Assembly (NCBI GenBank): GCA_026395815.1
Contig: JAPLXZ010000002.1
Span: 1-63,790, forward strand
From: Candidatus Pacearchaeota archaeon
GTDB lineage: Archaea > Nanobdellota > Nanobdellia > Pacearchaeales > GW2011-AR1
Length of the DNA: 63,790 nucleotides
Direction of reading: 5' to 3'
Part shown: positions 29,078-56,821 of the stretch, piece after piece
How positions within the stretch are numbered: position 1 is the first letter of the stretch
Layout: each line of letters begins with the position of its first letter
Notes under the pieces: model-generated
Database searches by the model: none
The model's input: only the letters and a program-made list of their open reading frames with translations
What the model was told of the DNA's origin: nothing
Program-made: the position numbers and the translations under genes

Positions 29078-29181
29078 TTTTATCCTCTTTTAATGTATAT
29101 TTATTATAATCAAAAGATGTTTTTAAATCTTGGGAAGATTTATTTGATATGATTTGTTAATGATGAAACGCACTGTTCTTC

Positions 29182-29223
29182 CATTAATTAAACTATCAAT
29201 ATCTTGCGAATGGAATGAGCAAG
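29182..29223 (-). repeat. Diverged copy of dispersed hairpin element downstream of aCPSF1
   Basis: + strand hairpin cttgc-GA-at-GGA-at-GA-gcaag; - strand tail attgatagtttaattaatg matches the tails at 46034 and 56475. Confidence 0.65.
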
Positions 29224-29227
29224 TGAT

Positions 29228-30976
29228 TTATGAGGGTGGGCGGGTGGGGCTAACGTTTCTTCCTGCATGTGCGCTGAATCCTGTGATTGTCTCTACTTCC
29301 ATTTCCACTTTTATTATTTCTTCCCTGTTTTCCACAAGCATTCTTGTTTCTTTTATTCCATCTTGCACCTGCCTTCCTAAGCTTCCCATTCCTTGGTAAC
29401 AAACGAAGATTATGCAGTTGTCTTTATTGCTTGCAAATTCCCTGAAATATTCCACGCTTGCTCCTCCGACAAGCATACCACTCGTAGCAAGAACAATGCA
29501 TGGGCCACCTTCAATAACATTCTTTCTTTCTTGGGGCGAGCCTACTCTTGAAAAATATTCAGAAACAAACGGATTCTTGTCTTGGAATACATCTGACCTT
29601 ACTTTATTGCTTAAAAAATCAGGATATGCTGTGTGAATTGCATTGATGTCCCAAATCATTCCGTCTATGTAAATCGGAACGGGTTTTAAAGCTCCTGAAC
29701 TCATAGCATCTTCCAAAATCAGCATTGTTTCTTGAGCTCTTCCTAATCCTAATTCTGGAATCAGAACTTTTCCTTTTCTTTCAATTGTTTTTCTCACTAT
29801 TTCAATAAATTTGTCTTCGGTTTCTTTTCTTGGAGGGAATGAATCGAGTTTTGAGCCGTAAGTTGATTCTGTTATCACCGATTCTACTCTTGGGAATGAT
29901 GCTACAGCAGGTTCTAATAGCCTTGATCTTCCGTATTTGTAATCTCCTGTGTAAAGAAGATTATGCAAACCATTTCCTATGTTCAAATGAACTAAGGCTC
30001 CTCCTAATACATGCCCTGAATTGTAAAATGTAAGCCTTATGTCAGGAGTAACATCAGTCACTTCATTGTAATTCAGGCAAATACTATGCTTTACCATTTC
30101 CTTGATGTCTGTAGAATCAAAAAGGGGTTTTGAAGCCTGCTTGTATGCAACTCCTATGAAATCCAAAGCAAGCAAAGCAGCAATGTCTCTTGAAGGAGGA
30201 GTCATGTATACAGGACCTTTGTAACCCATTTTATACAAGTATGGCAAAAGTCCTACGTGATCTAAGTGAGCATGGCTTATTATAATAGCGTCCAACTGAT
30301 CTAAACTGAATTCAGGGATATTCAAATAAGGAAATTTTTCTGAATTTTGAGCAGCTACATCAATTCCACAATCAAGCAGAATTTTTGAAACAGGGGTTTG
30401 CAATAAAATGCAGCTTCTTCCTACTTGCCTTGCTCCTCCTAAGAAAGTTAATCTTACCCACTCGTCGACTTTTTCAGGATTCCATTCCTTGTATATTTTT
30501 TTTCCAATTTCATTAAGAAATTTTCTTCTGTAATTGTTGTTAGCATACAAAACTTCCCTTATGTTTTCTGTTATTTTGCTTTTTATTACAGAAGAACGTT
30601 GCACTTGGGGTGTCCAAAGAGTAGTTTGCTTTATCTCTTCCAAAACACTTCCTTGCTTTCCAATCACCATTCCTGGCTTCTTGGCTTCTATAACAACAAT
30701 GCTTCTTTGAATGTCAAATATTATATCAGTTATTTCTGCGTCTTGGGGAACAATTTTTCTTATTTCTGCGTCTGTTTTCTCTTTTTCAAGAAGAATTTTT
30801 TGGTCTGCTCTTAATTCTATCCTTTTTTTTATCTGGTCTACTATGCTTTTTATCTTTCCTTCCCCTTCCTTGAAGAATTTTATATTTTCAGTGTACAAAA
30901 CGATATTAGCGCCTTCAAAAGTTGCCTCTGTTACATCGCCGTGTAACTGATCGGTTATATTCTTTAAGATATCCAT
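29228..30976 (-). CDS. Beta-CASP ribonuclease aCPSF1 (FttA), apparently C-terminally truncated
   Basis: KH domains (KPGMVIGKQG), HAHLDH, GHVLG, TGD, ESTYG, GFSAHAG, then unrelated NVSPTRPPS*; no HGE motif C. Confidence 0.9.
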   Translation of the reverse strand: MDILKNITDQLHGDVTEATFEGANIVLYTENIKFFKEGEGKIKSIVDQIKKRIELRADQKILLEKEKTDAEIRKIVPQDAEITDIIFDIQRSIVVIEAKKPGMVIGKQGSVLEEIKQTTLWTPQVQRSSVIKSKITENIREVLYANNNYRRKFLNEIGKKIYKEWNPEKVDEWVRLTFLGGARQVGRSCILLQTPVSKILLDCGIDVAAQNSEKFPYLNIPEFSLDQLDAIIISHAHLDHVGLLPYLYKMGYKGPVYMTPPSRDIAALLALDFIGVAYKQASKPLFDSTDIKEMVKHSICLNYNEVTDVTPDIRLTFYNSGHVLGGALVHLNIGNGLHNLLYTGDYKYGRSRLLEPAVASFPRVESVITESTYGSKLDSFPPRKETEDKFIEIVRKTIERKGKVLIPELGLGRAQETMLILEDAMSSGALKPVPIYIDGMIWDINAIHTAYPDFLSNKVRSDVFQDKNPFVSEYFSRVGSPQERKNVIEGGPCIVLATSGMLVGGASVEYFREFASNKDNCIIFVCYQGMGSLGRQVQDGIKETRMLVENREEIIKVEMEVETITGFSAHAGRNVSPTRPPS

Positions 30977-45975: not shown

Positions 45976-45983
45976 TTGTATAT

Positions 45984-46053
45984 ACGCTCGGCTTCGCCTC
46001 GCTTAAGATATTTCTCGCAACAAGTTGCTCTAAATTGATAGAATAATTAATGA
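45984..46053 (+). repeat. Dispersed ~70-bp REP/MITE-like hairpin element, copy A
   Basis: 62/70 identical to 56425..56494 by manual alignment; begins acgctcggcttcgcctcgcttaagata. Confidence 0.9.
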
Positions 46054-46079
46054 GAATAAAAAGAAGTGATGATAATTCC

Positions 46080-46652
46080 TTAAGGGCAGGTGGGCGGGGT
46101 GATGGGGGTGGGCTTGAGCTCCCAAACACAAATCTCTTCAAAAAACAATTTCTTTTTTTCAAGAAGCCTTTTTTTGTATCCCTTGAAATTTATTCCTTTT
46201 GTAAAACTGCTTGTCAGCAAAAATATTTTTCCATTTTTATCCAAATAATTTTTTGCCTGTTCTAAAAATTTGTTAATTGTTTCTGAGCCTTTTTTTCCTC
46301 CTGTTGTAGCTATCCTTGAATCTCTTGGCTCTTTTGAATCTTCTGGAAGATAAGGAGGATTGAAGATTATTAGACTAAATTTCATTTCTTTTTTGAAATT
46401 TTCAAACAAATCAGAATGAATGCAGTTAAATCCTAAAGATTTGCAATGAGAAACTGCTTCTTGGTTTATGTCAGAAGAAAAAATATTTTCTTTTTTAATT
46501 CTTAAATCCAAAGCAGTTTGCAAGTGGATTCCATTGCCTGTTCCTATTTCCAAAAATTTCAAATCGGGATTTTGCTTAATTAATTCTGGAAGATTGTTCT
46601 CTAAAATCTTTGACATTAAATAAGAATCCTCTGCAGGAGAATAGATTGACAT
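46080..46652 (-). CDS. HemK2/MTQ2 family methyltransferase
   Basis: IYSPAEDSYL, LEIGTGNG, FNPPY, GGKKG, LFFE; Pro-rich non-native-looking tail. Confidence 0.92.
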   Translation of the reverse strand: MSIYSPAEDSYLMSKILENNLPELIKQNPDLKFLEIGTGNGIHLQTALDLRIKKENIFSSDINQEAVSHCKSLGFNCIHSDLFENFKKEMKFSLIIFNPPYLPEDSKEPRDSRIATTGGKKGSETINKFLEQAKNYLDKNGKIFLLTSSFTKGINFKGYKKRLLEKKKLFFEEICVWELKPTPITPPTCP

Positions 46653-46702
46653 TTTATTTTCTTAATTAGTTTTTTAATCAGTTTTTCAATTAGTTTCCTA
46701 AT

Positions 46703-47254
46703 TTAGCTAAACATATTACTGACAAAATTAACTAGCTGTTCTCTAAAAATGAATATTGTCGCGAGAAGCCCGACTAAAAAGACTAAGAGAAATATTAATA
46801 CATAAATCATTGTTTTGTTCCTTTGAGGTTCTTGGCCATAACTTGAAACTCCTGTAGGATATTGCTGGGGGGGAGTTGTCTGAGTTGGATAAATGTAATA
46901 TGCCTGCGCTGGAAATTGCGGAGCAAATTTTTTTGGTGGTGGTTGCACAACAGGCTGTTGAATTTGAGGTTGGAGCTTAGGTTCTTCTTTTACAACAGGT
47001 TTAGGCTTCTCTACTTTTTGCTGAACTACAGGAGTAAGAGTTGGTTGATCCAATTTTGGCTTGACTAATCTTTCTTCCTTAGTAACTGGCTTTTTTGGAC
47101 GTGGTCCTGGCTGGTAATCTTTCAAAAGAGCTGCAGCCTCGGAAATTTCCTCTCTTTTATATCCTGCATTATAAAAAGTCATCATTGCTCTTTTCAAAGT
47201 TTCTCCTCTTTCAAGCGCACCTCTTAATCCACAAAAAATTTCCACGTTTACCAT
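46703..47254 (-). CDS. Hypothetical tail-anchored membrane protein
   Basis: N-terminal helical domain (ALERGETL..NAGY), Pro/Gln-rich linker, C-terminal TM. Confidence 0.75.
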   Translation of the reverse strand: MVNVEIFCGLRGALERGETLKRAMMTFYNAGYKREEISEAAALLKDYQPGPRPKKPVTKEERLVKPKLDQPTLTPVVQQKVEKPKPVVKEEPKLQPQIQQPVVQPPPKKFAPQFPAQAYYIYPTQTTPPQQYPTGVSSYGQEPQRNKTMIYVLIFLLVFLVGLLATIFIFREQLVNFVSNMFS

Positions 47255-47295
47255 TTTATATGTTATAAATTAAAGAAACCTTGATTTATAAAAAT

Positions 47296-48639
47296 TTACA
47301 ACTTTAGCTTTTGGCCGTTTTGCATAAGATGGCAATTTTTCCCTGCTTTGTATCCCATCTCTTTTCCAAGTTCCATCATAGGAGTCAAGTGCATTATTGA
47401 ACCATGGGCAGGGATTATATTTTCTGGATGTATCATAGTTATCAAATCCCTCAAATCTTCTCTTCCTGCATGGCCTGAAACATGGATGTTATCAAAAATT
47501 CTAACTCCATATTTTTTCAGCCTTTTGTCCATCTGTTCTTTATTTGCAACATTTACAGCAGCAGGAATTGTTCTTGAAGAAAAAACTACATTGTCGCCTG
47601 AACGGAATTCAAATGGAAGCTTGTTTCTTGAAAGCCTGTCCATTATACTTCCTGGTTCTCCTTGATGCCCTGTGCAAACAATCAAGGAATTTTCCCTTTC
47701 TTTTTGTATTTTTTTCAAAACAGAATCAACCTGCTTTTTGTAGCTTACAAGTTCAATATCTTTTTTGAAGGGGCACATTCCGATGTCAATTGATGCTGAA
47801 ACATACTTCTTCAAACTCCTTCCCATAAAGTAAATTTTTCTGTCTAATTTTTTCGAGAAATCAACAATGCTTTTCAATCTTGCAATATGGGATGAAAAAG
47901 TCGTGACAAAAATTGCAGATTCCTCGTTTTTTATCGTCAATAAGACTTCTTCCAAAAGTGCTCTTGCTATTTTTTCGCTCGGTGTTTTCCTTTCAATTCC
48001 AGAGTAAAGAGAATCAACAATAAGAACCTTGACTCCTTCTTTTGAAATTTTTTTTAACAAATCATAATTAGGGGGCAAACCAAGAATTGGAGTATTGTCC
48101 ATCTTGAAATCATTCGCATACAAAACAATTCCTTCTGGAGTGTGCAAAGCAATCATGGAAGTTTGCAGTGTAGAATGCGTTATGTTAATAAAATCAACAG
48201 TATAATTTCCACTTTTTCCTTTAATAGAACATGAAGAATTTGGATTTATTGTTTTTATTGGATTTGGGATGCTCATGTTTTCATCTTCCATTATCTTTTT
48301 CAAAACCTGGGTCGTGAATGGCGTTCCTAAAACAGGGGCATTATACCTGTAAGCCATGTAAGGAATTGCACCTATATGGTCGAGATGAGCATGGCCTAAA
48401 AAAATTGCCCGAACTTTATTTCTCAATCCGAACTTGTCTAAAATCAAATCATCTGGCAATGCTCCAATGCTTCTTAATCTTTTTTCAGAATAATTTCCTT
48501 CCTGAGTTTCCTCTTCCTGAAGCTCGACAATTGCAGGCAGATAAACTCCTGCGTCGAATATGAATACGTCATCTCCTGTTTTAACAGCAGTCATATTCTT
48601 TCCTACTTCATCAAATCCGCCTATAGTATAAATTTCCAT
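47296..48639 (-). CDS. rnj: Ribonuclease J
   Basis: GGFDEVGKNMT, HAHLDHIG, THS, NDFK, TGHQGEP, HVSGHA, PAHG. Confidence 0.95.
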   Translation of the reverse strand: MEIYTIGGFDEVGKNMTAVKTGDDVFIFDAGVYLPAIVELQEEETQEGNYSEKRLRSIGALPDDLILDKFGLRNKVRAIFLGHAHLDHIGAIPYMAYRYNAPVLGTPFTTQVLKKIMEDENMSIPNPIKTINPNSSCSIKGKSGNYTVDFINITHSTLQTSMIALHTPEGIVLYANDFKMDNTPILGLPPNYDLLKKISKEGVKVLIVDSLYSGIERKTPSEKIARALLEEVLLTIKNEESAIFVTTFSSHIARLKSIVDFSKKLDRKIYFMGRSLKKYVSASIDIGMCPFKKDIELVSYKKQVDSVLKKIQKERENSLIVCTGHQGEPGSIMDRLSRNKLPFEFRSGDNVVFSSRTIPAAVNVANKEQMDKRLKKYGVRIFDNIHVSGHAGREDLRDLITMIHPENIIPAHGSIMHLTPMMELGKEMGYKAGKNCHLMQNGQKLKL

Positions 48640-48759
48640 TTTTTCTAAATCTTATCACTTTTTATGCTATAAATTAGAAGAGGTAGTTTAAAAATTCTTT
48701 CAAAGAATTTTTAGATATAAAAAAGATAATTTTAATAATCAGATTTTACTGATAGTATC

Positions 48760-49044
48760 ATGAAAACTCTCAAGTCACTCAGACCAAGCATGAGGGAAAA
48801 TAAGAGATATTTGTTAGTTGAAGGAAAGAATTTAAGAAAAAATATTGAAAAGGCTATTTTAGAGTTTATAGGAATTTTAGGCATGTCAAAAGTTGGATTG
48901 GAATTCATAAGAGAAGGTCAAGATTCTGCTATTATAGGGATAAATAGGGAAATGGTTGATTCTGTAAGAGCAAGTTTATGCGTTTTTTCTGAAAAAATGG
49001 AAGTGAAAAAGGTAAGCGGGACATTAAAAGGGCTGAAGAGATAA
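48760..49044 (+). CDS. RNase P protein component 2 (Pop5/Rpp14)
   Basis: LRPSMRENKRYL, KVSGTLKGL; canonical position upstream of psmA. Confidence 0.88.
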   Translation: MKTLKSLRPSMRENKRYLLVEGKNLRKNIEKAILEFIGILGMSKVGLEFIREGQDSAIIGINREMVDSVRASLCVFSEKMEVKKVSGTLKGLKR

Positions 49045-49080
49045 GATAAACCTTAAATATCTTAATTTGAAGGGATTCTT

Positions 49081-49389
49081 ATGCTAATTGATGAAGATAT
49101 AACAAAAGTACTTGAAGAAGAGAAGAAAAAATTAGAAATAGAAGAAGTTGTAAGAGTATTTCCTGGATGGAAACCTGTTCCTTGCATTGAAAAAAGAGGA
49201 GAAGAATATACCATTATTATTCCTTCTCATATAAATCCAACAAAGATTAGATTTAAACATATTATAAGACATGAATTATATCACTCATACAGACATAAAA
49301 AAGATGTAGAAAGAGGGGTTGGTTTTATGAGAAATCTTTTGTTAGACATACCTGCAAATGTATATTCTTATTTTGGGATTAGATTGTAA
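49081..49389 (+). CDS. Small zincin-like protein
   Basis: IRHELYH HExxH motif. Confidence 0.6.
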   Translation: MLIDEDITKVLEEEKKKLEIEEVVRVFPGWKPVPCIEKRGEEYTIIIPSHINPTKIRFKHIIRHELYHSYRHKKDVERGVGFMRNLLLDIPANVYSYFGIRL

Positions 49390-49484
49390 TTTTCCCTCCA
49401 AAAACTTTAAATACCATTATTTCTTCTAAAAATCGGAGAGAAAAAGAAATTAAGTTTTAAATTATAAATTTCTCTAAAATTAGA

Positions 49485-50210
49485 ATGGATATACCATTAG
49501 ACTTACAACAACAAGCAATGGGCTATGACAGAACTGCGACAATGTTCTCGCCTCAAGGCCATTTGCTTCAGGTAGAATATGCTGAAAAAACTGTCAGACT
49601 TGGAAGTGCAAGCATTGGCATGACTTGTTCTGATGGAGTTTTTATACTTGCAGATTTAAGAATAGAAGACAAGCTGATTGTCCAAAGATCAGCGAACAAG
49701 ATTTATGAAATTGATTCTCACATAATTGCAAGCGTTGCTGGAATTGTCTCTGATGCAAGAGTTTTGATTGAAAGAGCGCAAGTTTTAGCACAGCAGCATA
49801 GAGTCACTTACGATTCTCCAATAGAGCCAGAATTAATAATCAAAGACATTTCAAATGTAAAGCAGCAATTCACTCAATATGGCGGAGCAAGGCCATTTGG
49901 AGTCTCTTTAATGATTGCTGGAATAAACAGCAAAAGACCAGAGCTTTACACAAGCGATGTTACAGGAAATTATCTTTCATATTACACAAATGCAATCGGA
50001 GAAAACGACGAGAAAATAAGAGAAATACTAAGGGAAAAATACAAGCCGGAATTTACAATAAAAAGAGGAGTTAAACTTGCATTGGATATAATTAAGGAAA
50101 TGCAGGACAAGAAATTCAATATTGGCAGGTTTGAATTGGTTTATATTAAAAGCGAAAATTCGGAATTAAAAAGATTATACGGAGAAGAATTGCAAGAATT
50201 TGTAAAATAA
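49485..50210 (+). CDS. psmA: Proteasome alpha subunit
   Basis: GYDRTATMFSPQGHLLQVEYA, RPFGVSL. Confidence 0.97.
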   Translation: MDIPLDLQQQAMGYDRTATMFSPQGHLLQVEYAEKTVRLGSASIGMTCSDGVFILADLRIEDKLIVQRSANKIYEIDSHIIASVAGIVSDARVLIERAQVLAQQHRVTYDSPIEPELIIKDISNVKQQFTQYGGARPFGVSLMIAGINSKRPELYTSDVTGNYLSYYTNAIGENDEKIREILREKYKPEFTIKRGVKLALDIIKEMQDKKFNIGRFELVYIKSENSELKRLYGEELQEFVK

Positions 50211-50217
50211 AATTAAA

Positions 50218-50889
50218 ATGACTAAAACAACCGCAAGAATAAAACAAAAAGGAAAACCTTTCGAGATTATAGTTGATTTGGATGAAGCATTAAAATTCAA
50301 AAAAGGGGAAAGCAATTGGATTGAAGCAGAAGGAGGCAGAATTTTCATAGATGTAAAAAAAGGAAATGCTGCTCCTGCAAAAGACTTAGAAGATGCTTTT
50401 GGAACAACAGATGTTTCAACTATTGCTGCAAAAATTGTTAAAAGCGGTGAGATTTTAACAACACAAGAGTACAGAGAAGATGAAAAAGAAAAAAAATACA
50501 AGCAAGTTGTCGATATTTTAGTTAAAAATACTATTGATCCTAAAACAGGAAATCCGCACACCCCTGAAAGAATAAAAAGTGCATTGGAAGAAGCGCATGT
50601 TAATATTAAAAACACGCCGATAGAAAGTCAGATTAAGGATATTATTGAAGAAATAAGCAAGATTATTCCAATAAAAGTTGAAACAAAAAGAATTAAAATA
50701 AAGGTTCCTGCAATACATACAGGGAAAGCTTATGGAGTAGTAAGCCAGTACAAAGAAGAGGAAAATTGGCTTAATGACGGAAGTTTGGAAGTCGTTGTAA
50801 GCATTCCTGCTGGATTGATAATGGAGTTTTATGACAAATTAAATTCAGCGACGCATGGAAGTGCGTTTACAGAGGAGTTAAAAGAATAA
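50218..50889 (+). CDS. Ribosome maturation factor SBDS/Sdo1
   Basis: FEIIVD, AFGTTD, DPKTGNPHTPERI. Confidence 0.95.
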   Translation: MTKTTARIKQKGKPFEIIVDLDEALKFKKGESNWIEAEGGRIFIDVKKGNAAPAKDLEDAFGTTDVSTIAAKIVKSGEILTTQEYREDEKEKKYKQVVDILVKNTIDPKTGNPHTPERIKSALEEAHVNIKNTPIESQIKDIIEEISKIIPIKVETKRIKIKVPAIHTGKAYGVVSQYKEEENWLNDGSLEVVVSIPAGLIMEFYDKLNSATHGSAFTEELKE

Positions 50890-50890
50890 A

Positions 50891-51070
50891 ATGACAATTG
50901 ATTTAGGGAAAAAGATGGTTAGTGAAGATGGGTATGATTTATGCGTTAGTTGCAGTACTAAAACCGTTTATAAAACAGAGACGCATATTGATGCAAGAAG
51001 AAATTATATAGAAGGCGCAGGGCAGTTGTGTGGTAATTGCTATGAAGCTTTAGAGGGAACAAGGAAATGA
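50891..51070 (+). CDS. Small Zn-finger protein (59 aa), absent from ORF track
   Basis: ..CVSC..HIDARRNYIEGAGQLCGNC..; ATGA overlap with rrp4. Confidence 0.75.
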   Translation: MTIDLGKKMVSEDGYDLCVSCSTKTVYKTETHIDARRNYIEGAGQLCGNCYEALEGTRK

Positions 51071-51783
51071 CAGACAGAAAAATTGTAATACCTGGAGAAG
51101 TAGTGTTCGAAGGAGCAGACTATTTGCCGGGAGAAGGAACAGAAAAGAAAGGAAACGAGATAGTTGCAATGCGATTTGGTCTTGCTGAAGAAGCAAATAA
51201 ACTCATCAAAGTCATACCTTTATCAGGAGTTTATCAACCAAGAAGAGGAAACGTTGTAATAGGAAAAGTGGAGAATGTAACATTTAATGGATGGGTTATA
51301 GACATAGGGACAGCAGACAGTTCATTCTTGCCTATAATGGAATTTCCAAGATATGTCAACCAAGATGAATTGGAAGAAATTATGGCTATTGGAGATATGG
51401 TTGTTGCAAAGATTAATTCAATAAACCAGAGGGGAATAGACTTAACAGTCAAGCTAAAAGGACTTGGCAGATTGGATAAGGGAATCATAATCAGCATAAA
51501 TTCAAATAAAGTCCCAAGAGTTATCGGTAAGGAAGGAAGCATGATATCTTTAATAAAAGAAGAGACAAACTGCAGAATCACTGTTGGCCAAAACGGATTG
51601 ATTTGGATAAATGGAAACAAGATAGAAGATGAGCTATTTGCAAAGAAAGCTATTTTGCATGTTGCTGAAAGATCATTCATGTCTGGACTTACAGACGAGA
51701 TGAAAAAATGGTTTGAAAAAGAAAAAGAACAGACAGGAAGTCTGAAAAACAGACAGGCTGTTTTAAAGGAGAATAAAAATTAA
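51067..51783 (+). CDS. rrp4: Exosome RNA-binding protein Rrp4
   Basis: VIPGE, S1 domain, KVPRVIGKEGSMI KH, VGQNGLIW. Confidence 0.95.
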   Translation: MTDRKIVIPGEVVFEGADYLPGEGTEKKGNEIVAMRFGLAEEANKLIKVIPLSGVYQPRRGNVVIGKVENVTFNGWVIDIGTADSSFLPIMEFPRYVNQDELEEIMAIGDMVVAKINSINQRGIDLTVKLKGLGRLDKGIIISINSNKVPRVIGKEGSMISLIKEETNCRITVGQNGLIWINGNKIEDELFAKKAILHVAERSFMSGLTDEMKKWFEKEKEQTGSLKNRQAVLKENKN

Positions 51784-51784
51784 A

Positions 51785-52048
51785 ATGGGAATAGGAGAAA
51801 AAGATACTCAAGAGAAAATGAAAGTTGAATATAAAGTAGTTAGTGAAAGAAATTGGAATGAAAAAAGTTCATCTCCAATAAAGTACACTTTTTATGAAAA
51901 TGGTTCAAAGACTGATGAAACATCTCATTTAGACCATTTGGAGTTTCCAGAAGACACAGGTTTTTTAATGACAATGGCAAAAAAACAAAGAGATATTTTA
52001 AATAAAAATAAAATAATTAAATCAATTGAATCAACCCTAATAGTTTAA
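51785..52048 (+). CDS. Hypothetical protein
   Basis: 87-aa ORF tightly packed between rrp4 and rrp41. Confidence 0.6.
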   Translation: MGIGEKDTQEKMKVEYKVVSERNWNEKSSSPIKYTFYENGSKTDETSHLDHLEFPEDTGFLMTMAKKQRDILNKNKIIKSIESTLIV

Positions 52049-52049
52049 A

Positions 52050-52772
52050 ATGACAACAAAAGAAACACACTCAAAAGAATTCAAAAGACCTGACGGAAGA
52101 AAGCCTGATGAGCTTAGGAAGATAACTGCAAAAGTCGGGATAATTCCTAATGCAGATGGAAGTGCGATGTTCTCATTCGGAGATACTGTTGCAATTGCTG
52201 CTGTTTACGGGCCAAAAAAAATGCATCCTCAACATTCACAAAATCCAGAAAAAGGAACATTGAGATGTAACTACAACATGCTCAGCTTTTCTGTTTCAGA
52301 AAGAATTCGTCCAGGGCCTTCAAGAAGAAGCACTGAAATTAGCAAGATAACAGAATGGGCTTTAGAGCCGGTTTTAATGATTAATGATTTTCAGGGAAAT
52401 GTCGTCGATGTTCATATAAGCATTTTGCAGGCAAACGCATCAACAAGATGCGCTGGAATAAACGCTGCTGTGATGGCTCTCGCTCATGCCGGAATTCCAA
52501 TGAAGAACCTTGTATCGAGCGTTTCAATAGGAAAACTTGACAAGCAGTTAGTTGTTGATTTGATAAAGGAAGAAGAAGATTGGGAAGAGGGAGAAGGAGC
52601 AACAGACATCCCAATAACATTTACTGCAGACGGAAAAATAACTCACATTCAGTTGGATGGAAAAATAACAAAGAAGCAATTAAAAGAAGCAATAGAACTT
52701 GCAAGAGAATCCTGCAAGAAGATTTACGAAATTCAAAAGAAAGCTTTGAAAGAAGTAGGGGAGGAAAAATGA
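52050..52772 (+). CDS. rrp41: Exosome core subunit Rrp41
   Basis: RPDGRKPDELR, ADGSA, GPSRRSTEIS, STRCAGINAA. Confidence 0.95.
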   Translation: MTTKETHSKEFKRPDGRKPDELRKITAKVGIIPNADGSAMFSFGDTVAIAAVYGPKKMHPQHSQNPEKGTLRCNYNMLSFSVSERIRPGPSRRSTEISKITEWALEPVLMINDFQGNVVDVHISILQANASTRCAGINAAVMALAHAGIPMKNLVSSVSIGKLDKQLVVDLIKEEEDWEEGEGATDIPITFTADGKITHIQLDGKITKKQLKEAIELARESCKKIYEIQKKALKEVGEEK

Positions 52773-52818
52773 CTAAACAGAAATTCAGCACAAATAAAAA
52801 TTCAGGAGAATTTTCATA

Positions 52819-53619
52819 ATGATAGAAACATCAGAATTAACAGCAGAAAGAATAAAAGAATATTTGAACCTTGGAAAAAGGTTTGATGACAGAAAACTCG
52901 ACGAGTTCAGGGAAATAGTTATTGAGACAGGAGTCTCAAAAAATGCAGAAGGAAGCGCAAGAGTAAAAGTAGGAAAAACAGAAGTACTTGTAGGAGTTAA
53001 GATGGATGTTTCAGAACCCTACCCTGATTCTCAAGACAAGGGAAATTTGATGGTTACTGCTGAATTGCTTCCATTAAGTTCTCCAAGATTTGAATACGGA
53101 CCTCCTCAATTTGACGCAATAGAATTAGCAAGAGTCATTGACAGGGGAATAAGAGAAAGCAAATTCATTCAACTAGAAAAATTATGCATAAAAGAAGGAG
53201 AAAAAGTTTGGACTGTTTTCATAGACATATATACAATGAACGACGACGGAAATTTATTTGATGCAGCATGGTTAGGAGCAATTGCTGCGCTTAAAACAGC
53301 AAAAATTCCAAAATACGAAGAAAAAGAAGAAAAAGTTATATATGGAGAACGGACAAAAGACAATGTTCCATTGGCAGAATATGTTCCAATATCCTTGACA
53401 GTTTATAAAATAGGGAATAACTTAATTGTTGACCCTACAAAAGAAGAAGAAGATATAAGAGAAACTAGAGTGACTGTTTGTAGTTCTGACGGAACGATTT
53501 TTTCAATGCAAAAAGGAAATGTGAAAGAATTGAGTGTTGAAGAATTCAGTAATATTCTTGATTTAGTGGAAAAAACAGAAAGAGAAATCTTTAAAAAAAT
53601 AGAAAAGAATTTAAAATAA
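52819..53619 (+). CDS. rrp42: Exosome core subunit Rrp42
   Basis: AEGSARV, ELARVIDRGIRES, NDDGNLFDA, VDPT. Confidence 0.95.
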   Translation: MIETSELTAERIKEYLNLGKRFDDRKLDEFREIVIETGVSKNAEGSARVKVGKTEVLVGVKMDVSEPYPDSQDKGNLMVTAELLPLSSPRFEYGPPQFDAIELARVIDRGIRESKFIQLEKLCIKEGEKVWTVFIDIYTMNDDGNLFDAAWLGAIAALKTAKIPKYEEKEEKVIYGERTKDNVPLAEYVPISLTVYKIGNNLIVDPTKEEEDIRETRVTVCSSDGTIFSMQKGNVKELSVEEFSNILDLVEKTEREIFKKIEKNLK

Positions 53620-53780
53620 TGGAAAACCAAATTAAACTTTGCGAATTGATTGAATACTGTGGAGACTTTCATGTCATTGGAAAAAATGCATGTGAAGGCG
53701 TGAAAAATTCTAATGAATGCCCATTATTAATTGATGTTAAAAATAATCAATATACAGACAGATTTAAACCATTACCATAA
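53619..53780 (+). CDS. Small Cys-containing hypothetical protein (53 aa), absent from ORF track
   Basis: MENQIKLCELIEYCGDFHVIGKNACEGVKNSNECPLL..; TAATG overlap with rrp42, ends 1 nt before rpoK ATG. Confidence 0.6.
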   Translation: MENQIKLCELIEYCGDFHVIGKNACEGVKNSNECPLLIDVKNNQYTDRFKPLP

Positions 53781-53781
53781 G

Positions 53782-54150
53782 ATGTTAAAAGGATTTAGCA
53801 AATATGAAACAGCAAGGATTCTTGGAGCAAGGGCTTTGCAAATTTCAATGAATGCTCCTTTATTAATAAAAATAGAAAAAGAAGATCTTGAAAAAATAAA
53901 TTACGATGCATTAAAAATTGCTGAGATAGAACTTAATTCAGAAATTCTTCCAATTTCAATAAAACGTCCTTTCCCGCTAAAAAGAGAGGACAGATTAAAG
54001 AGAATAAGGGAAAGAAAGATTTCTGACCAAGAGATTGAGAAAAAAGAAGGAACAGAAGAAGCAAGCATAGTTGGAAGCGGTGAAATGATGGAACTCGCAA
54101 CTCCTGAAGACGAAGCAGGAGATGAAGCTGAAGAAGCAGAAGGGGAATAA
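53782..54150 (+). CDS. rpoK: RNA polymerase subunit K (Rpo6) with acidic tail
   Basis: SKYETARILGARALQISMNAP; ATG at 53782. Confidence 0.93.
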   Translation: MLKGFSKYETARILGARALQISMNAPLLIKIEKEDLEKINYDALKIAEIELNSEILPISIKRPFPLKREDRLKRIRERKISDQEIEKKEGTEEASIVGSGEMMELATPEDEAGDEAEEAEGE

Positions 54151-54187
54151 TATTAAAGTTTATTAATCCAACTTCATTTTTCTTATT

Positions 54188-55342
54188 ATGATAATAAAGG
54201 GGGTTTCAGCGAAAACTATTTTGGATTCTCGAAAAGAAAAAACCGTTCTTGTTTCTGTAAAAACAAATGCTGGAGAATTCAGTGCAAGCGCGCCGAATGG
54301 AAAATCAACAGGAAGTTATGAAAAAAAACCGTACAAGAAAAGCCTTGAAGAAGACATAAAGGCAATAAAACAATTCAGTGATTATTTCTCCGAGGATATT
54401 CTCGATAAATTTGATGATTTGAGAAGAGTTGAAGATGTCATGGACAGGCAGATTGGTGCTAATACCCTTTTTGCATTTGAGTCTGCAATACTCAAAGCGA
54501 TTGCAAAAGAACAAAAAAAACAGGTTTGGGAACTTATAGACAATAATGCTAAAGGATTTCCAAGACTTGTAGGCAATTGCATTGGTGGAGGAAAACATTC
54601 GTCATTAGAAAGAAAGCCGGATTTTCAAGAATTTTTGCTGATTCCTAATTTGAAAAACGTGAAAGAATCTTTTGAAGCAAATAAAAAGGCAAAAAAAGAA
54701 GCAGAATGGTTGTTAAAAAAACAGGATGAAAAATTCAAGGGAAATAAGAATGATGAAGACGCATGGGCTACATCTTTAAATGATAAAGTTGTTTTGGAGA
54801 TACTGAAAAATTTAAAATTGCCTCTTGGAATTGACGTCGCTGCTACTGGCTTTTACAAGAGAAAGAAATATCATTATCACAATCCGCCGTTAGACAGGGA
54901 AAATGAAGAACATTTCGAATATTTATGCAATTTAATAAGAAATTTTAATCTTTTTTACATAGAAGACCCTTTTGAAGAGGGAAGTTTTGAAGATTTTGCA
55001 AAATTATTAAAGAAATTTCCTGAAAGATTAATTGTTGGGGACGATCTCACAACTACAAACCCAAAAAGATTTGAAAAAGCAATAAAGATGAAAAGCATAA
55101 ATGCAATAATCGTAAAACCAAATCAGATTGGCTCTTTAATAGAGATGAAAGAGGTTGTTGAACTGGCAAAAAGGAACAACATTAAGATTGTTTTTTCTCA
55201 CAGAAGCGGAGAAACAGAAGAAACTATTTTGGCTGATTTAGCCTTCGGTTTTCAAGCTGATTTTTTTAAATGTGGAATTACAGGCAAGGAAAGAGAAGCA
55301 AAGATAAAGAGATTAATTGAGATTGAAAAAGGATTGAAGTAA
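54188..55342 (+). CDS. eno: Enolase
   Basis: ILDSR, STG, DFQEF, IEDPF, VGDDL, KPNQIG, SHRSGET. Confidence 0.95.
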   Translation: MIIKGVSAKTILDSRKEKTVLVSVKTNAGEFSASAPNGKSTGSYEKKPYKKSLEEDIKAIKQFSDYFSEDILDKFDDLRRVEDVMDRQIGANTLFAFESAILKAIAKEQKKQVWELIDNNAKGFPRLVGNCIGGGKHSSLERKPDFQEFLLIPNLKNVKESFEANKKAKKEAEWLLKKQDEKFKGNKNDEDAWATSLNDKVVLEILKNLKLPLGIDVAATGFYKRKKYHYHNPPLDRENEEHFEYLCNLIRNFNLFYIEDPFEEGSFEDFAKLLKKFPERLIVGDDLTTTNPKRFEKAIKMKSINAIIVKPNQIGSLIEMKEVVELAKRNNIKIVFSHRSGETEETILADLAFGFQADFFKCGITGKEREAKIKRLIEIEKGLK

Positions 55343-55406
55343 ATTATATTCTATATTCCCATTTTGCATAGAAAACCTTTAAAAATATACTTTTTCTCTG
55401 AAATGT

Positions 55407-56423
55407 ATGCCTAAAAAAAAGAAATCTGAAAATGAAACCGCTGAAGAAAAAGCAGAAGAAAAAATAGAAGCAGATATCGTCAAAGATATAGAAAAAGACG
55501 GCGTGCCGGAAAGCATTGCAAAGAAAGAAGAAAATATAGCAGAAAGGGTAGAAAAAGAACTGGAAAAGAAAGCAGAATCGCAAGCGAGCGCATCTTTAGT
55601 AAAAGCTGCGGAAGCAGAATCACTTTCAACTGAAAATATAAAAGAAGACTCTGAACAAGTTCAAGTTTCATCCAATGACAACATTGAACGAAAGAAAAAA
55701 GAAATTCTTGAAAAAGCGAAAAAGCTAGCTGAAAAACTTGAAAAACCTACTACAGAAGAGCTTAAAGAAAAAATCAAAATCAAGAAAAGAACAGACATGC
55801 TTATTCCTCTTGAAGAGTATGTCAAATCGGGAATTTATCTTGGAACAAGAGTTATAACTCCTGACATGAGGCCATTTGTTTACAGAAGAAGAGCAGATGG
55901 ACTTGCAATATTCAACACTGATCTAATCGATGAGAAATTAAAAGAAGCAATTGAATATTTTTCCAAATTTGACGCTAAGGACATAATCCTTGTGTGCAAA
56001 AGACAAGCAGGATGGAAAGCTGCAGAGATGTTTTCAAGATTAACAGGAATAAGAACATTCACAAAAAAATATCCCGCAGGAATTTTAACAAATACTGCAC
56101 TTCCTGATTTTTTTGAGAATGAATTGAGCATAATTACAGATTCATGGCTTGACAAAAACGCCTTGCATGATACTGTGAATGCTAGAAAAAAAGTTTTGAT
56201 GCTTTGCGACACGAATAATTTTGCAAGAAATGCTGATCAGATAATAATTGGGAATAATAAAAGTTCAAAAAGCTTGGGGGTAATTTTTTACTTGCTCACG
56301 AGAGGATATTGCAAAGCAAAAGGGCTTGAAGTAGATGTTCCTGATTTAGATTTCTGGACAGTTGAAGAAGAACCGCAAATTGAAGAAAGAACAAGAAGAA
56401 TAGACACGAGATTTGGAGTGTAA
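55407..56423 (+). CDS. rps2: 30S ribosomal protein uS2 with long charged N-terminal extension
   Basis: LEEYVKSGIYLGT..MRPFVY.RRADGL, GNNKS.KSL; follows eno as in the archaeal superoperon. Confidence 0.92.
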   Translation: MPKKKKSENETAEEKAEEKIEADIVKDIEKDGVPESIAKKEENIAERVEKELEKKAESQASASLVKAAEAESLSTENIKEDSEQVQVSSNDNIERKKKEILEKAKKLAEKLEKPTTEELKEKIKIKKRTDMLIPLEEYVKSGIYLGTRVITPDMRPFVYRRRADGLAIFNTDLIDEKLKEAIEYFSKFDAKDIILVCKRQAGWKAAEMFSRLTGIRTFTKKYPAGILTNTALPDFFENELSIITDSWLDKNALHDTVNARKKVLMLCDTNNFARNADQIIIGNNKSSKSLGVIFYLLTRGYCKAKGLEVDVPDLDFWTVEEEPQIEERTRRIDTRFGV

Positions 56424-56424
56424 G

Positions 56425-56494
56425 ACGCTCGGCTTCGCCTCGCTTAAGATACTTCTCGCACTAACGTGCTCGAAATTGATATAATGATTAATGA
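56425..56494 (+). repeat. Dispersed ~70-bp REP/MITE-like hairpin element, copy B
   Basis: Near-identical to 45984..46053; starts 1 nt after the rps2 stop. Confidence 0.9.
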
Positions 56495-56602
56495 ATAATC
56501 ACAATTAAATTTTATTAACCAATACAAATAATCAACGCGTGGTTTTTCGCATTAAATTGCATATTGATATCACGAATGTTAATGAGTGCTATCTTTTGGG
56601 AG

Positions 56603-56821
56603 TTAATTTACAGGCTTCTCCACTTTTGTCCCGCATTCATGGCAGAACTTCTCACATTCATCAAGGATTATTCCGCAGTTTTTGCATTTGATAACAATTT
56701 GCTTTTTTTCTATTACAGGTTTATAATTAGATTTTCCTGAAACTAATTTTCCGAATGCGCTTACAAACTCATCAGTTTGTTGTATCTCATTCATCCTCTT
56801 TTGAAGAAAATTTGCATCCAT
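56603..56821 (-). CDS. Small zinc-ribbon protein
   Basis: CKNCG..KFCHECG. Confidence 0.8.
   Translation of the reverse strand: MDANFLQKRMNEIQQTDEFVSAFGKLVSGKSNYKPVIEKKQIVIKCKNCGIILDECEKFCHECGTKVEKPVN

Follow-up and report, generated by a model that had tools for sequence, protein, structure and literature searches.

The 63,790-nt stretch of Candidatus Pacearchaeota DNA analysed here (the window) carries two nearly identical 70-nt sequences, copy A and copy B, and raises the question of what these sequences are. It is contig C7 of an archaeal source assembly (G000; 704 kb, 17 contigs, ~32% G+C); other genomes are likewise given as G handles and contigs as C handles. The original prediction, made from the letters of the window, described the copies as a dispersed, non-autonomous family of strand-specific hairpin elements placed just after stop codons, typical of the substrates of HUH enzymes. 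We find that A and B are low-copy members of a large, dispersed, structured repeat family. They are probably copies of a non-autonomous selfish repeat of ~80-110 nt from one DPANN family that depends on an enzyme in trans and resembles the REP (repetitive extragenic palindromic) elements, the bacterial interspersed mosaic elements (BIMEs) and the Rickettsia palindromic elements (RPEs).

Copies A and B and the repeat family to which they belong

The 62/70 identity of copies A (45984-46053) and B (56425-56494) was reproduced by blastn within the 704-kb genome (E 7.6e-16). Read on the antisense strand, which is the purine-rich strand, both copies show a box (CATTAAT-N5-TATCAAT), a hairpin H2 (x-GA-gcaa/gcac-loop-ttgc/gtgc-GA-x), UAA and a hairpin H1 (GC-GA-GGC-GAA-GCC-GA-GC). 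Matches to a covariance model built here (R1) and the parts of the two copies are as follows.

45984..46068, minus (purine-rich) strand: copy A, full unit (R1 68.5 bits, E 1.8e-12)
46034-46052, minus (purine-rich) strand: copy A, box CATTAATTATTCTATCAAT
46015-46030, minus (purine-rich) strand: copy A, hairpin H2
45986-46002, minus (purine-rich) strand: copy A, hairpin H1 GCGAGGCGAAGCCGAGC
56425..56509, minus strand: copy B, full unit (R1 60.6 bits, E 1.3e-10)
56475-56493, minus strand: copy B, box
56456-56471, minus strand: copy B, hairpin H2
56427-56443, minus strand: copy B, hairpin H1

As predicted, both copies adjoin stop codons: A begins 8 nt past the TAG of the beta subunit of a 2-oxoacid:ferredoxin oxidoreductase and B 1 nt past the TAA of ribosomal protein S2. 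Copy B lies between the S2 gene (plus strand) and a convergent open reading frame (ORF) for a 72-aa zinc-ribbon protein (56603-56821), as judged from ORFs and Pfam.

Across the family the unit is ~80-110 nt long and consists, on the purine-rich strand, of a CATTAAY box, a 10-12-nt spacer, H2, UAA and H1. H2 has G-C pairs that close a purine-rich internal loop, GCGAA...NNAGCAA (GCGAA...AGCAA), and H1 has the form GC-GA-stem-GNA-stem-GA-GC, with tandem G.A mismatches and a GNA loop. A metagenome scan with a 21-mer gave 49 loci, and the low-G+C loci among them show a recurring architecture of (C)ATTA(A/T)C, ~12 nt, YRGCGRA, a variable stem-loop, NRAGCAA, N1-7, UAA and GCGAGGCGAAGCCGAGCG. The junction specific to A and B had no match in a metagenome scan of its own, and the 70-nt A/B arrangement had no further copy in 60 relatives, where matches spanned H1 or the tail alone.

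We surveyed the H1 17-mer with at most one mismatch in 401 genomes of the order, using the reversed 17-mer as a control. The 17-mer occurs in 30 of these genomes, at 1-23 sites per genome, and the control in none; only 3 of the 14 genomes of the genus of G000 contain it. The covariance-model scan proposed with the original prediction was run over 150 genomes of the family (one per genus, plus G000 and one congener), and R1 is positive in 37 of them (E<=0.01). By the best 30 candidates per genome, on which the R1 copy numbers rest, the richest genomes are G170 (30), G021 (29), G430 (23), G311 (21) and G209 (21). G000 has five R1 matches, namely A, B, two diverged full units (C5:33403-33488 and C2:164363-164429) and C8:17429-17486; an exact H1 with its TTA stands at C8:17465-17485, 2 nt past a stop. 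The family is therefore not limited to the copies in the window. Nor does it match a described Rfam family: at the gathering score the window yields only the archaeal 16S rRNA at its end (Rfam covariance-model search), and six element-bearing loci searched at E<=1 yield one tRNA and nothing else.

Two other identities were considered for H1-bearing loci and rejected. A coding reading of H1 and its adjoining blocks in G333 fails because the reading frames vary between copies and contain stops, as read by eye from the alignment, and a CRISPR-like array does not fit because the repeats within a single locus are not alike. The surroundings of H1 in G333 (loci L028, L051-L077) are a ~45-nt 'P box', present in copies that end in a promoter-like motif (TTTAAAG), and a non-coding block that is conserved (CCAATGTACAAAyGGATTrAGGATTTGCAGAATAAAA), between which H1 is embedded.

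Covariation and the strand that folds

The stems of the unit covary. In an alignment of 16 sequences, all from separate contigs (A3), 89.8% of cells are paired, compared with 75.9 +/- 1.5% in shuffles, none of 500 of which reaches this value; controls with slid partners pair 26-37% of cells, and 11 of the 16 pairs change on both sides. A second alignment of 55 R1 matches from G170, G311 and G021 has 95.2% of cells paired vs 70.0 +/- 1.0% in shuffles (0/500), a test that overstates the effect because the alignment is model-fitted and the copies are related, and the slid controls (23-37%) are therefore the fairer comparison. All 16 pairs in this second alignment, including those of H1, change on both sides.

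The results also show which strand is structured. Cells with G-U pairs on the purine-rich strand outnumber those with A-C by 9 to 3 in one count and by 27 to 8 in the 55 matches, and single-base variants of H1 are wobble-compatible at 10 sites on the purine-rich strand and at 2 on the other. Three copies in G181 carry a fully compensated swap in H1 (GCC...GGC), for 17 of 20 sequences the H2 region gives its better fold on the purine-rich strand, and the internal loops are purine-rich on the folding strand (GA/GA, GAA/NNA) and pyrimidine-rich on its complement. One strand, the purine-rich one, is thus the structured strand, and the evidence fits RNA and single-stranded DNA alike. The predicted dispersed, non-autonomous and strand-asymmetric hairpin family with covariation is borne out, and its behaviour is of the REP type; its well-supported covarying structure is an addition to the motifs that have no Rfam entry.

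Folding of the window copies agrees with this strand assignment. The hairpins proposed for A and B are the minimum-free-energy folds on both strands, and the compensatory change proposed for H2 amounts to one compensated pair between A and B (gcaa/ttgc vs gcac/gtgc). The antisense strand, with its G.A mismatches, folds better than the sense strand both as RNA (A, -12.0 vs -8.5 kcal/mol; B, -17.7 vs -11.7 kcal/mol) and as DNA (A, -5.3 vs -3.7 kcal/mol; B, -6.7 vs -4.9 kcal/mol), an advantage of 3.5-6 kcal/mol as RNA and ~1.7 kcal/mol as DNA. Thermodynamic z-scores fail to set the element apart from shuffled sequences in the 12 folds tested, of which one is unusual (copy B, G.A strand, RNA; z -2.02, equalled by 7 of 200 shuffles). 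The core of the hyperstable GCGAAGC hairpin is indeed present, but exceptional stability is not borne out by nearest-neighbour energies; since only 1 of 12 folds stands out against the shuffles, the term hyperstable rests on published knowledge of the GCGAAGC mini-hairpin. In the parts of the literature available to us, the GCGAAGC/GCGNAGC DNA mini-hairpin and the sheared tandem G.A (CGAG) motifs (PMC13037366, PMC10085684) are motifs of physical chemistry, unlike the genetic element described here; as far as these parts go, the H1 core GGC-GAA-GCC inside C-GA-G/C-GA-G combines both motifs, one nested in the other.

Recognition of duplex DNA would make the hairpins incidental. The element would then be a site for a regulator, an origin-binding protein or a recombination protein, or a set of cassettes spread by recombination alone. 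H1 can be read as three tandem CGARN pentamers and is nearly invariant, like a binding site, and at two loci a tyrosine recombinase gene adjoins a conserved ~190-nt region with a one-mismatch H1. However, both arms of H1 keep GA on the same strand, so that H1 is not a true palindrome and a symmetric dimer site does not fit; the stems vary by compensating pairs, with the sequence otherwise free, and the asymmetry between G-U and A-C cells is unexpected under duplex recognition. We therefore regard this explanation as highly improbable. A kink-turn was also considered. Kink-turns, the sites of L7Ae, have tandem G.A pairs next to a 3-nt bulge; the G.A pairs of the element lie in a bulge-free symmetric loop, 2x2 or, in H2, 3x3, and the kink-turn was rejected.

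Insertion, gene ends and element C

The elements are insertions: sites are filled in some congeners and empty in others. Empty sites in relatives had been named as a check, and congener G006 is empty at the site of copy A. The comparison delimits one feature.

45976..46118: extra stretch of ~140 nt holding copy A, between the oxidoreductase beta stop and the end of a convergent methyltransferase gene

In G006 the oxidoreductase and methyltransferase genes abut, with TAA followed directly by TTCCCAAATAC and no spacer, and congeners G010, G007 and G002 have short, unrelated spacers at this site. A second insertion lies within a gene for a RIO/Bud32-like kinase (G000:C5:33178-33936), where the element is part of an in-frame insert of ~50 aa just before the IDFG motif (Pfam). 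Kinase homologues in 13 of 16 congeners align as two pieces that skip the insert and that abut, or nearly abut, in most of them, and an element is also found at this position of the protein in G311, which belongs to another genus. Most copies are intergenic; 6 of the 55 matches lie inside ORFs of at least 261 aa, and 5 of these are read on the purine-rich strand with a similar peptide pattern (G170, G311, G021). The elements thus occupy the short spacers where genes end, are accommodated in frame within proteins and can take the place of a gene's end.

The last of these outcomes is seen at element C, which the original prediction gave as a diverged third copy (29182-29223).

29182-29200, plus strand: element C, 19-nt AT-rich box CATTAAT-N5-TATCAAT, CATTAATTAAACTATCAAT
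29203-29223, plus strand: element C, hairpin CTTGC-GA-AT-GGA-AT-GA-GCAAG, without H1 and not a full unit
29130..29254: 125-nt segment replacing the end of the aCPSF1/FttA gene, holding element C and a G-run GGGTGGGCGGGTGGGG (29234-29249)
29228-30976, minus strand: aCPSF1/FttA

Element C has the box in common with A and B, but it carries a different G.A hairpin and no H1, and it is a relative only; R1 does not detect it at E<=0.5. The 19-nt box occurs four times in G000, compared with 0.2 expected from shuffles, and a hairpin directly follows each occurrence. The strict box occurs once each in 4 of 16 congeners, by apparent chance, and a hairpin follows none of these. The tail ATTGATA-N5-ATTAATG said to be shared by all copies is accordingly common within G000, but only its CATTAAY half is kept across the family.

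The aCPSF1/FttA open frames are 627-655 aa long in 16 of 16 relatives, while the alignment of the G000 protein stops at residue 574-575 and continues as VSPTRPPS-stop, which is encoded by the G-run. The last 53 codons and the stop are replaced by the 125 nt; the missing part is what follows GFSAHAGRN in all 16 relatives, and tblastn found nothing of this 53-residue tail anywhere in the 704-kb assembly. Pfam places only KH, metallo-beta-lactamase and beta-CASP domains in the G000 protein, with no C-terminal domain. Either this essential termination factor is truncated or split in G000, or the contig is chimeric at element C. The claim that C, too, follows a stop codon holds at a distance of 4 nt from the aCPSF1/FttA stop, with the caveat that this stop is itself inside the inserted sequence.

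G-runs accompany the element at both sites. The run at 46084-46113, near copy A, extends the methyltransferase by a Pro-rich tail, KPTPITPPTCP. A G-rich motif of low copy number, GGGYGGGCGGG, whose spacing is G-quadruplex-like, is present in both this run and the one at 29234-29249, in a genome of 32% G+C; the two runs lie at the 3' ends of minus-strand genes and are translated as Pro-rich tails. Further sites of the motif are G000:C9:~2260, C5:~64318 and C8:14562-14590, and 7 of 60 H1 sites in other genomes have it at a distance of no more than 300 nt from H1.

The junction that holds copy B is also variable among congeners. G010 has a diverged element at the same place, and diverged hairpin and G-rich modules occupy the S2/zinc-ribbon junction in G010 and G011, which suggests repeated landing or turnover at this place. 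In the window, the spacer past copy B (56495-56602) contains a second, looser box, ATTGATATCACGAATGTTAATGAG.

Convergent genes are the commonest setting for 60 H1-type sites from many genomes (22 of the 43 sites with two neighbours). Among the 55 matches, H1 tends to touch the stop codon, with a gap of at most 30 nt to the gene that ends beside it in 14 of 24 cases (median 22), and the box end has a median distance of ~130 nt to its neighbour gene. The uniform orientation relative to the gene that had been claimed holds in G000, where H1 is ~10 nt or less from a stop in 4 of 5 matches, but not in the family: with the purine-rich strand read, the 55 matches from three genomes lie between co-directional genes 15 and 14 times in the two senses, between convergent genes 9 times and between divergent genes twice. 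T-runs after the unit are equally frequent on the two strands (13 vs 15 of 55). Units occur singly, as head-to-head inverted pairs (n=7 among the 55 matches) or as mosaics with other modules such as G-runs, and G170 holds a composite of more than 215 nt in three copies with 81% mean column identity.

These positions bear on the possibility that the element works as RNA, either as a small RNA gene on the purine-rich strand with CATTAAY in its promoter or as a hairpin that terminates or protects transcripts. Covariation that includes G-U pairs fits RNA, as do the location at gene ends with its many convergent settings and short gaps from H1 to the stop, and in viral contigs of <50% G+C a T-run follows the 17-mer at 9 of 36 sites on the purine-rich strand vs 1 of 36 on the other. 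But folded DNA also tolerates G-T wobbles, orientation to the neighbouring genes is not fixed, and the archaeal T-runs are strand-neutral, both in the 55 matches and in a second count (8 vs 7 of 59). The AT-rich box was rejected as a promoter, as it is unlike the cTTTAAAa found ~30 nt before the tRNA genes of G000, and both the in-ORF copies and the truncation of aCPSF1 suggest damage rather than design. We consider an RNA module unlikely.

The proposed mobilising enzyme and known repeat families

If the element is a selfish repeat, as we favour, an enzyme should act on it, and the original prediction pointed to HUH enzymes of the RAYT (REP-associated tyrosine transposase) or IS200 type. Such a Y1 transposase, RAYT or IS200/IS605 TnpA, would bind the purine-rich DNA strand in its folded form and cleave next to the hairpin. 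The strand-asymmetric imperfect hairpins with G.A pairs and GNA loops are as often seen in HUH substrates, the G-U/G-T statistics point to a single folded strand, and the TTGATA in the G000 box presumably resembles the nick sites of rolling-circle Rep proteins. Of the 5 highest-copy genomes tested, 4 contain Y1_Tnp (PF01797), as do 5 of the 9 with at least 9 R1 matches. However, as noted for the window in the original prediction, the source DNA has no such gene: Y1_Tnp is absent from G000, and likewise from G004, G167 and G333, though G333 has 25 17-mer sites (<=2 mismatches); it is present in G181 and absent from the high-copy genomes G311, G026, G420 and G353. Presence of Y1_Tnp does not follow that of the element (13 of 37 element-positive vs 34 of 113 element-negative genomes, a count that presumes the same 150 genomes in both surveys, for which the listed handles agree). 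Y1 genes flanked by the motif were sought, and none of 9 Y1 loci has an R1 match at E<=0.01 within ~1.5 kb (best E 0.43 with filters off); in the three of these loci that were read (L078, L079, L434), the Y1_Tnp end hairpins are other sequences. Rep_1 and TnpB are also without a hit over the cut-off in 5 genomes. The results thus do not support the proposed HUH link, and we judge mobilisation by a Y1 HUH transposase very unlikely.

Two related candidates were rejected. Ends derived from IS200/IS605 elements (PATE-type) do not fit the differing Y1 hairpins at the three loci or the lack of TnpB over the cut-off in the 5 genomes, and a transposable element of the miniature inverted-repeat kind (MITE) driven by a DDE transposase does not fit the distribution of the two DDE families tested (DDE_Tnp_1 in 1 of 5 and DDE_3 in 0 of 5 high-copy genomes). 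None of the enzyme families tested (Y1, Rep_1, TnpB, DDE_Tnp_1 and DDE_3) thus fits as the mover.

For the selfish repeat that we favour, we propose that copying would proceed via the folded single purine-rich strand, which would be recognised by an enzyme supplied in trans, and that any benefit to the host, such as a stable hairpin at transcript ends, would be secondary. Several points weigh against this explanation. Neither an autonomous copy nor a candidate enzyme was found among the genomes and enzyme families searched. Sequence-matching terminal inverted repeats were not seen: the inverted pairs have H1-type hairpins at both outer ends, but their halves differ in sequence, and a target-site duplication was not seen by eye in 3 aligned copies. 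Patchy distribution alone is no proof of mobility, and gene conversion or recombination between copies could also spread short cassettes. A structure conserved so strongly, with an H1 that hardly varies, could reflect a function as RNA or as a protein-binding site and not mere selfishness. The genomes surveyed are incomplete metagenome-assembled genomes (MAGs; 61-95% complete), and to these points the inflation of the 55-match shuffle test has to be added.

Comparison with known systems places the element closest to bacterial repeats. Like the REPs and BIMEs of enterobacteria and pseudomonads, it is a short, G+C-rich, imperfect palindrome that is extragenic and lies mostly at gene ends, with tens of copies per genome as single units, inverted pairs and motif mosaics and a patchy distribution among relatives. 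Unlike them, it has no RAYT/Y1 gene that is flanked by or co-occurs with the units, its unit is a fixed two-hairpin arrangement whose internal loops are purine-rich, and its host is a DPANN archaeon. REP elements carry a GTAG-type head, which the DPANN units are without.

The RPEs, in the part of PMC10969869 available to us, are structured repeats of ~100-150 nt in a reduced genome that lie in frame in unrelated housekeeping genes and are translated as a conserved peptide. Judged against that part, the present element is alike in being a structured repeat of similar length in a reduced genome and in its in-frame insertion in protein genes with a constant frame (the kinase insert and the in-ORF copies with similar peptides) and unlike in being mostly intergenic and archaeal, not bacterial, with an unrelated sequence and fold.

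With MITEs the element has in common that it is small, non-coding, multi-copy and dependent on an enzyme in trans, but no matching terminal inverted repeats or target duplications were seen here, and the two DDE families misfit. A MITE-Tracker census lists, in the portion available to us, a 'Woesearchaea genome' as one of the archaeal genomes with the highest MITE density (PMC11602168), and the repeat family may already be contained, unnamed, in its MITE lists. We found no description of the family in the literature on Pacearchaeota intergenic hairpin repeats or DPANN miniature inverted-repeats.

The element would thus be an archaeal counterpart to REP/BIME and the Rickettsia RPE. DPANN genomes are among the smallest and most compact cellular ones, yet in one family the copy number of a structured repeat reaches dozens. 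The repeat alters gene ends, supplies essential proteins such as a Bud32/RIO-type kinase with extra peptide loops and, in G000, has removed the C-terminal part of aCPSF1/FttA. Because false C-terminal extensions arise, the elements can serve as a marker of assembly and annotation errors, as well as for strain typing, and the covariance model provides a search image for finding the mobilising enzyme.

The H1 17-mer is also found beyond these archaea. Exact matches occur at 98 viral-contig loci, and the fetched contigs of <50% G+C hold 36 distinct sites, which lie in non-coding DNA among similar hairpins; the T-runs that follow the 17-mer in these contigs have the layout of bacterial terminators. 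The full two-hairpin unit is rare in viral contigs, where the best of 76 loci reaches 40.5 bits and most scores come from H1 alone. A pattern derived from the 'TCT locus', which is conserved, gave no match. Across 596 Gb of genome sequence, the exact 17-mer has more than 122 loci, mostly in high-G+C bacteria, where chance or coding accounts for it, so that outside low-G+C genomes the 17-mer by itself has no diagnostic value. Of 143 sites in the loci that were read, 14 lie in contexts of <45% G+C, and the low-G+C matches include records titled Pacearchaeota, Parcubacteria and Saccharibacteria. A bolder alternative is that the units are substrates of a new DPANN mobilisation system that reads folded single strands and is neither Y1 HUH nor common DDE, with the nested tandem-G.A/GNA hairpin maybe a cross-domain 'handle' that a conserved factor could recognise, given the presence of the 17-mer in dozens of low-G+C phage contigs and in MAGs of candidate phyla radiation bacteria, or else a large family of independently transcribed small RNAs; we think this quite unlikely.

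Several further structured regions were noted. A conserved, structured region of ~190 nt containing TCTCGGCTTCGCCTCGC is single-copy in 12 of 401 genomes from three families (loci L008, L023, L026, L035-L037, L039, L040, L045, L047 and L049), with covarying long-range helices, GNA/UNCG-type loops and no Rfam match at E<=0.1. It adjoins a tyrosine recombinase gene at two loci and lies near toxin-antitoxin or methylase-like genes at others, and it possibly forms a functional part of a mobile element. Several tRNA introns of G000 (C2:7651-7782, C2:135185-135308 and C13:49908-50027) have in common a hairpin with the loop GAGnTAATCCATA, which is also found after tRNA-Gly on C15 and in an unannotated tRNA-like stretch beside tRNA-Phe (C8:13140-13235). 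A resemblance between the element and the tRNA introns, GAGCAACTTTGCGAG, was read from the sequences at this last site. Fragments of tRNA 3' ends are repeated in the vicinity of tRNA genes at G000:C5:55387-55525, C14:95141-95212, C6:323-342 with 1491-1518, and C15:26243-26261, and they look like attachment-site duplications from integrating elements.

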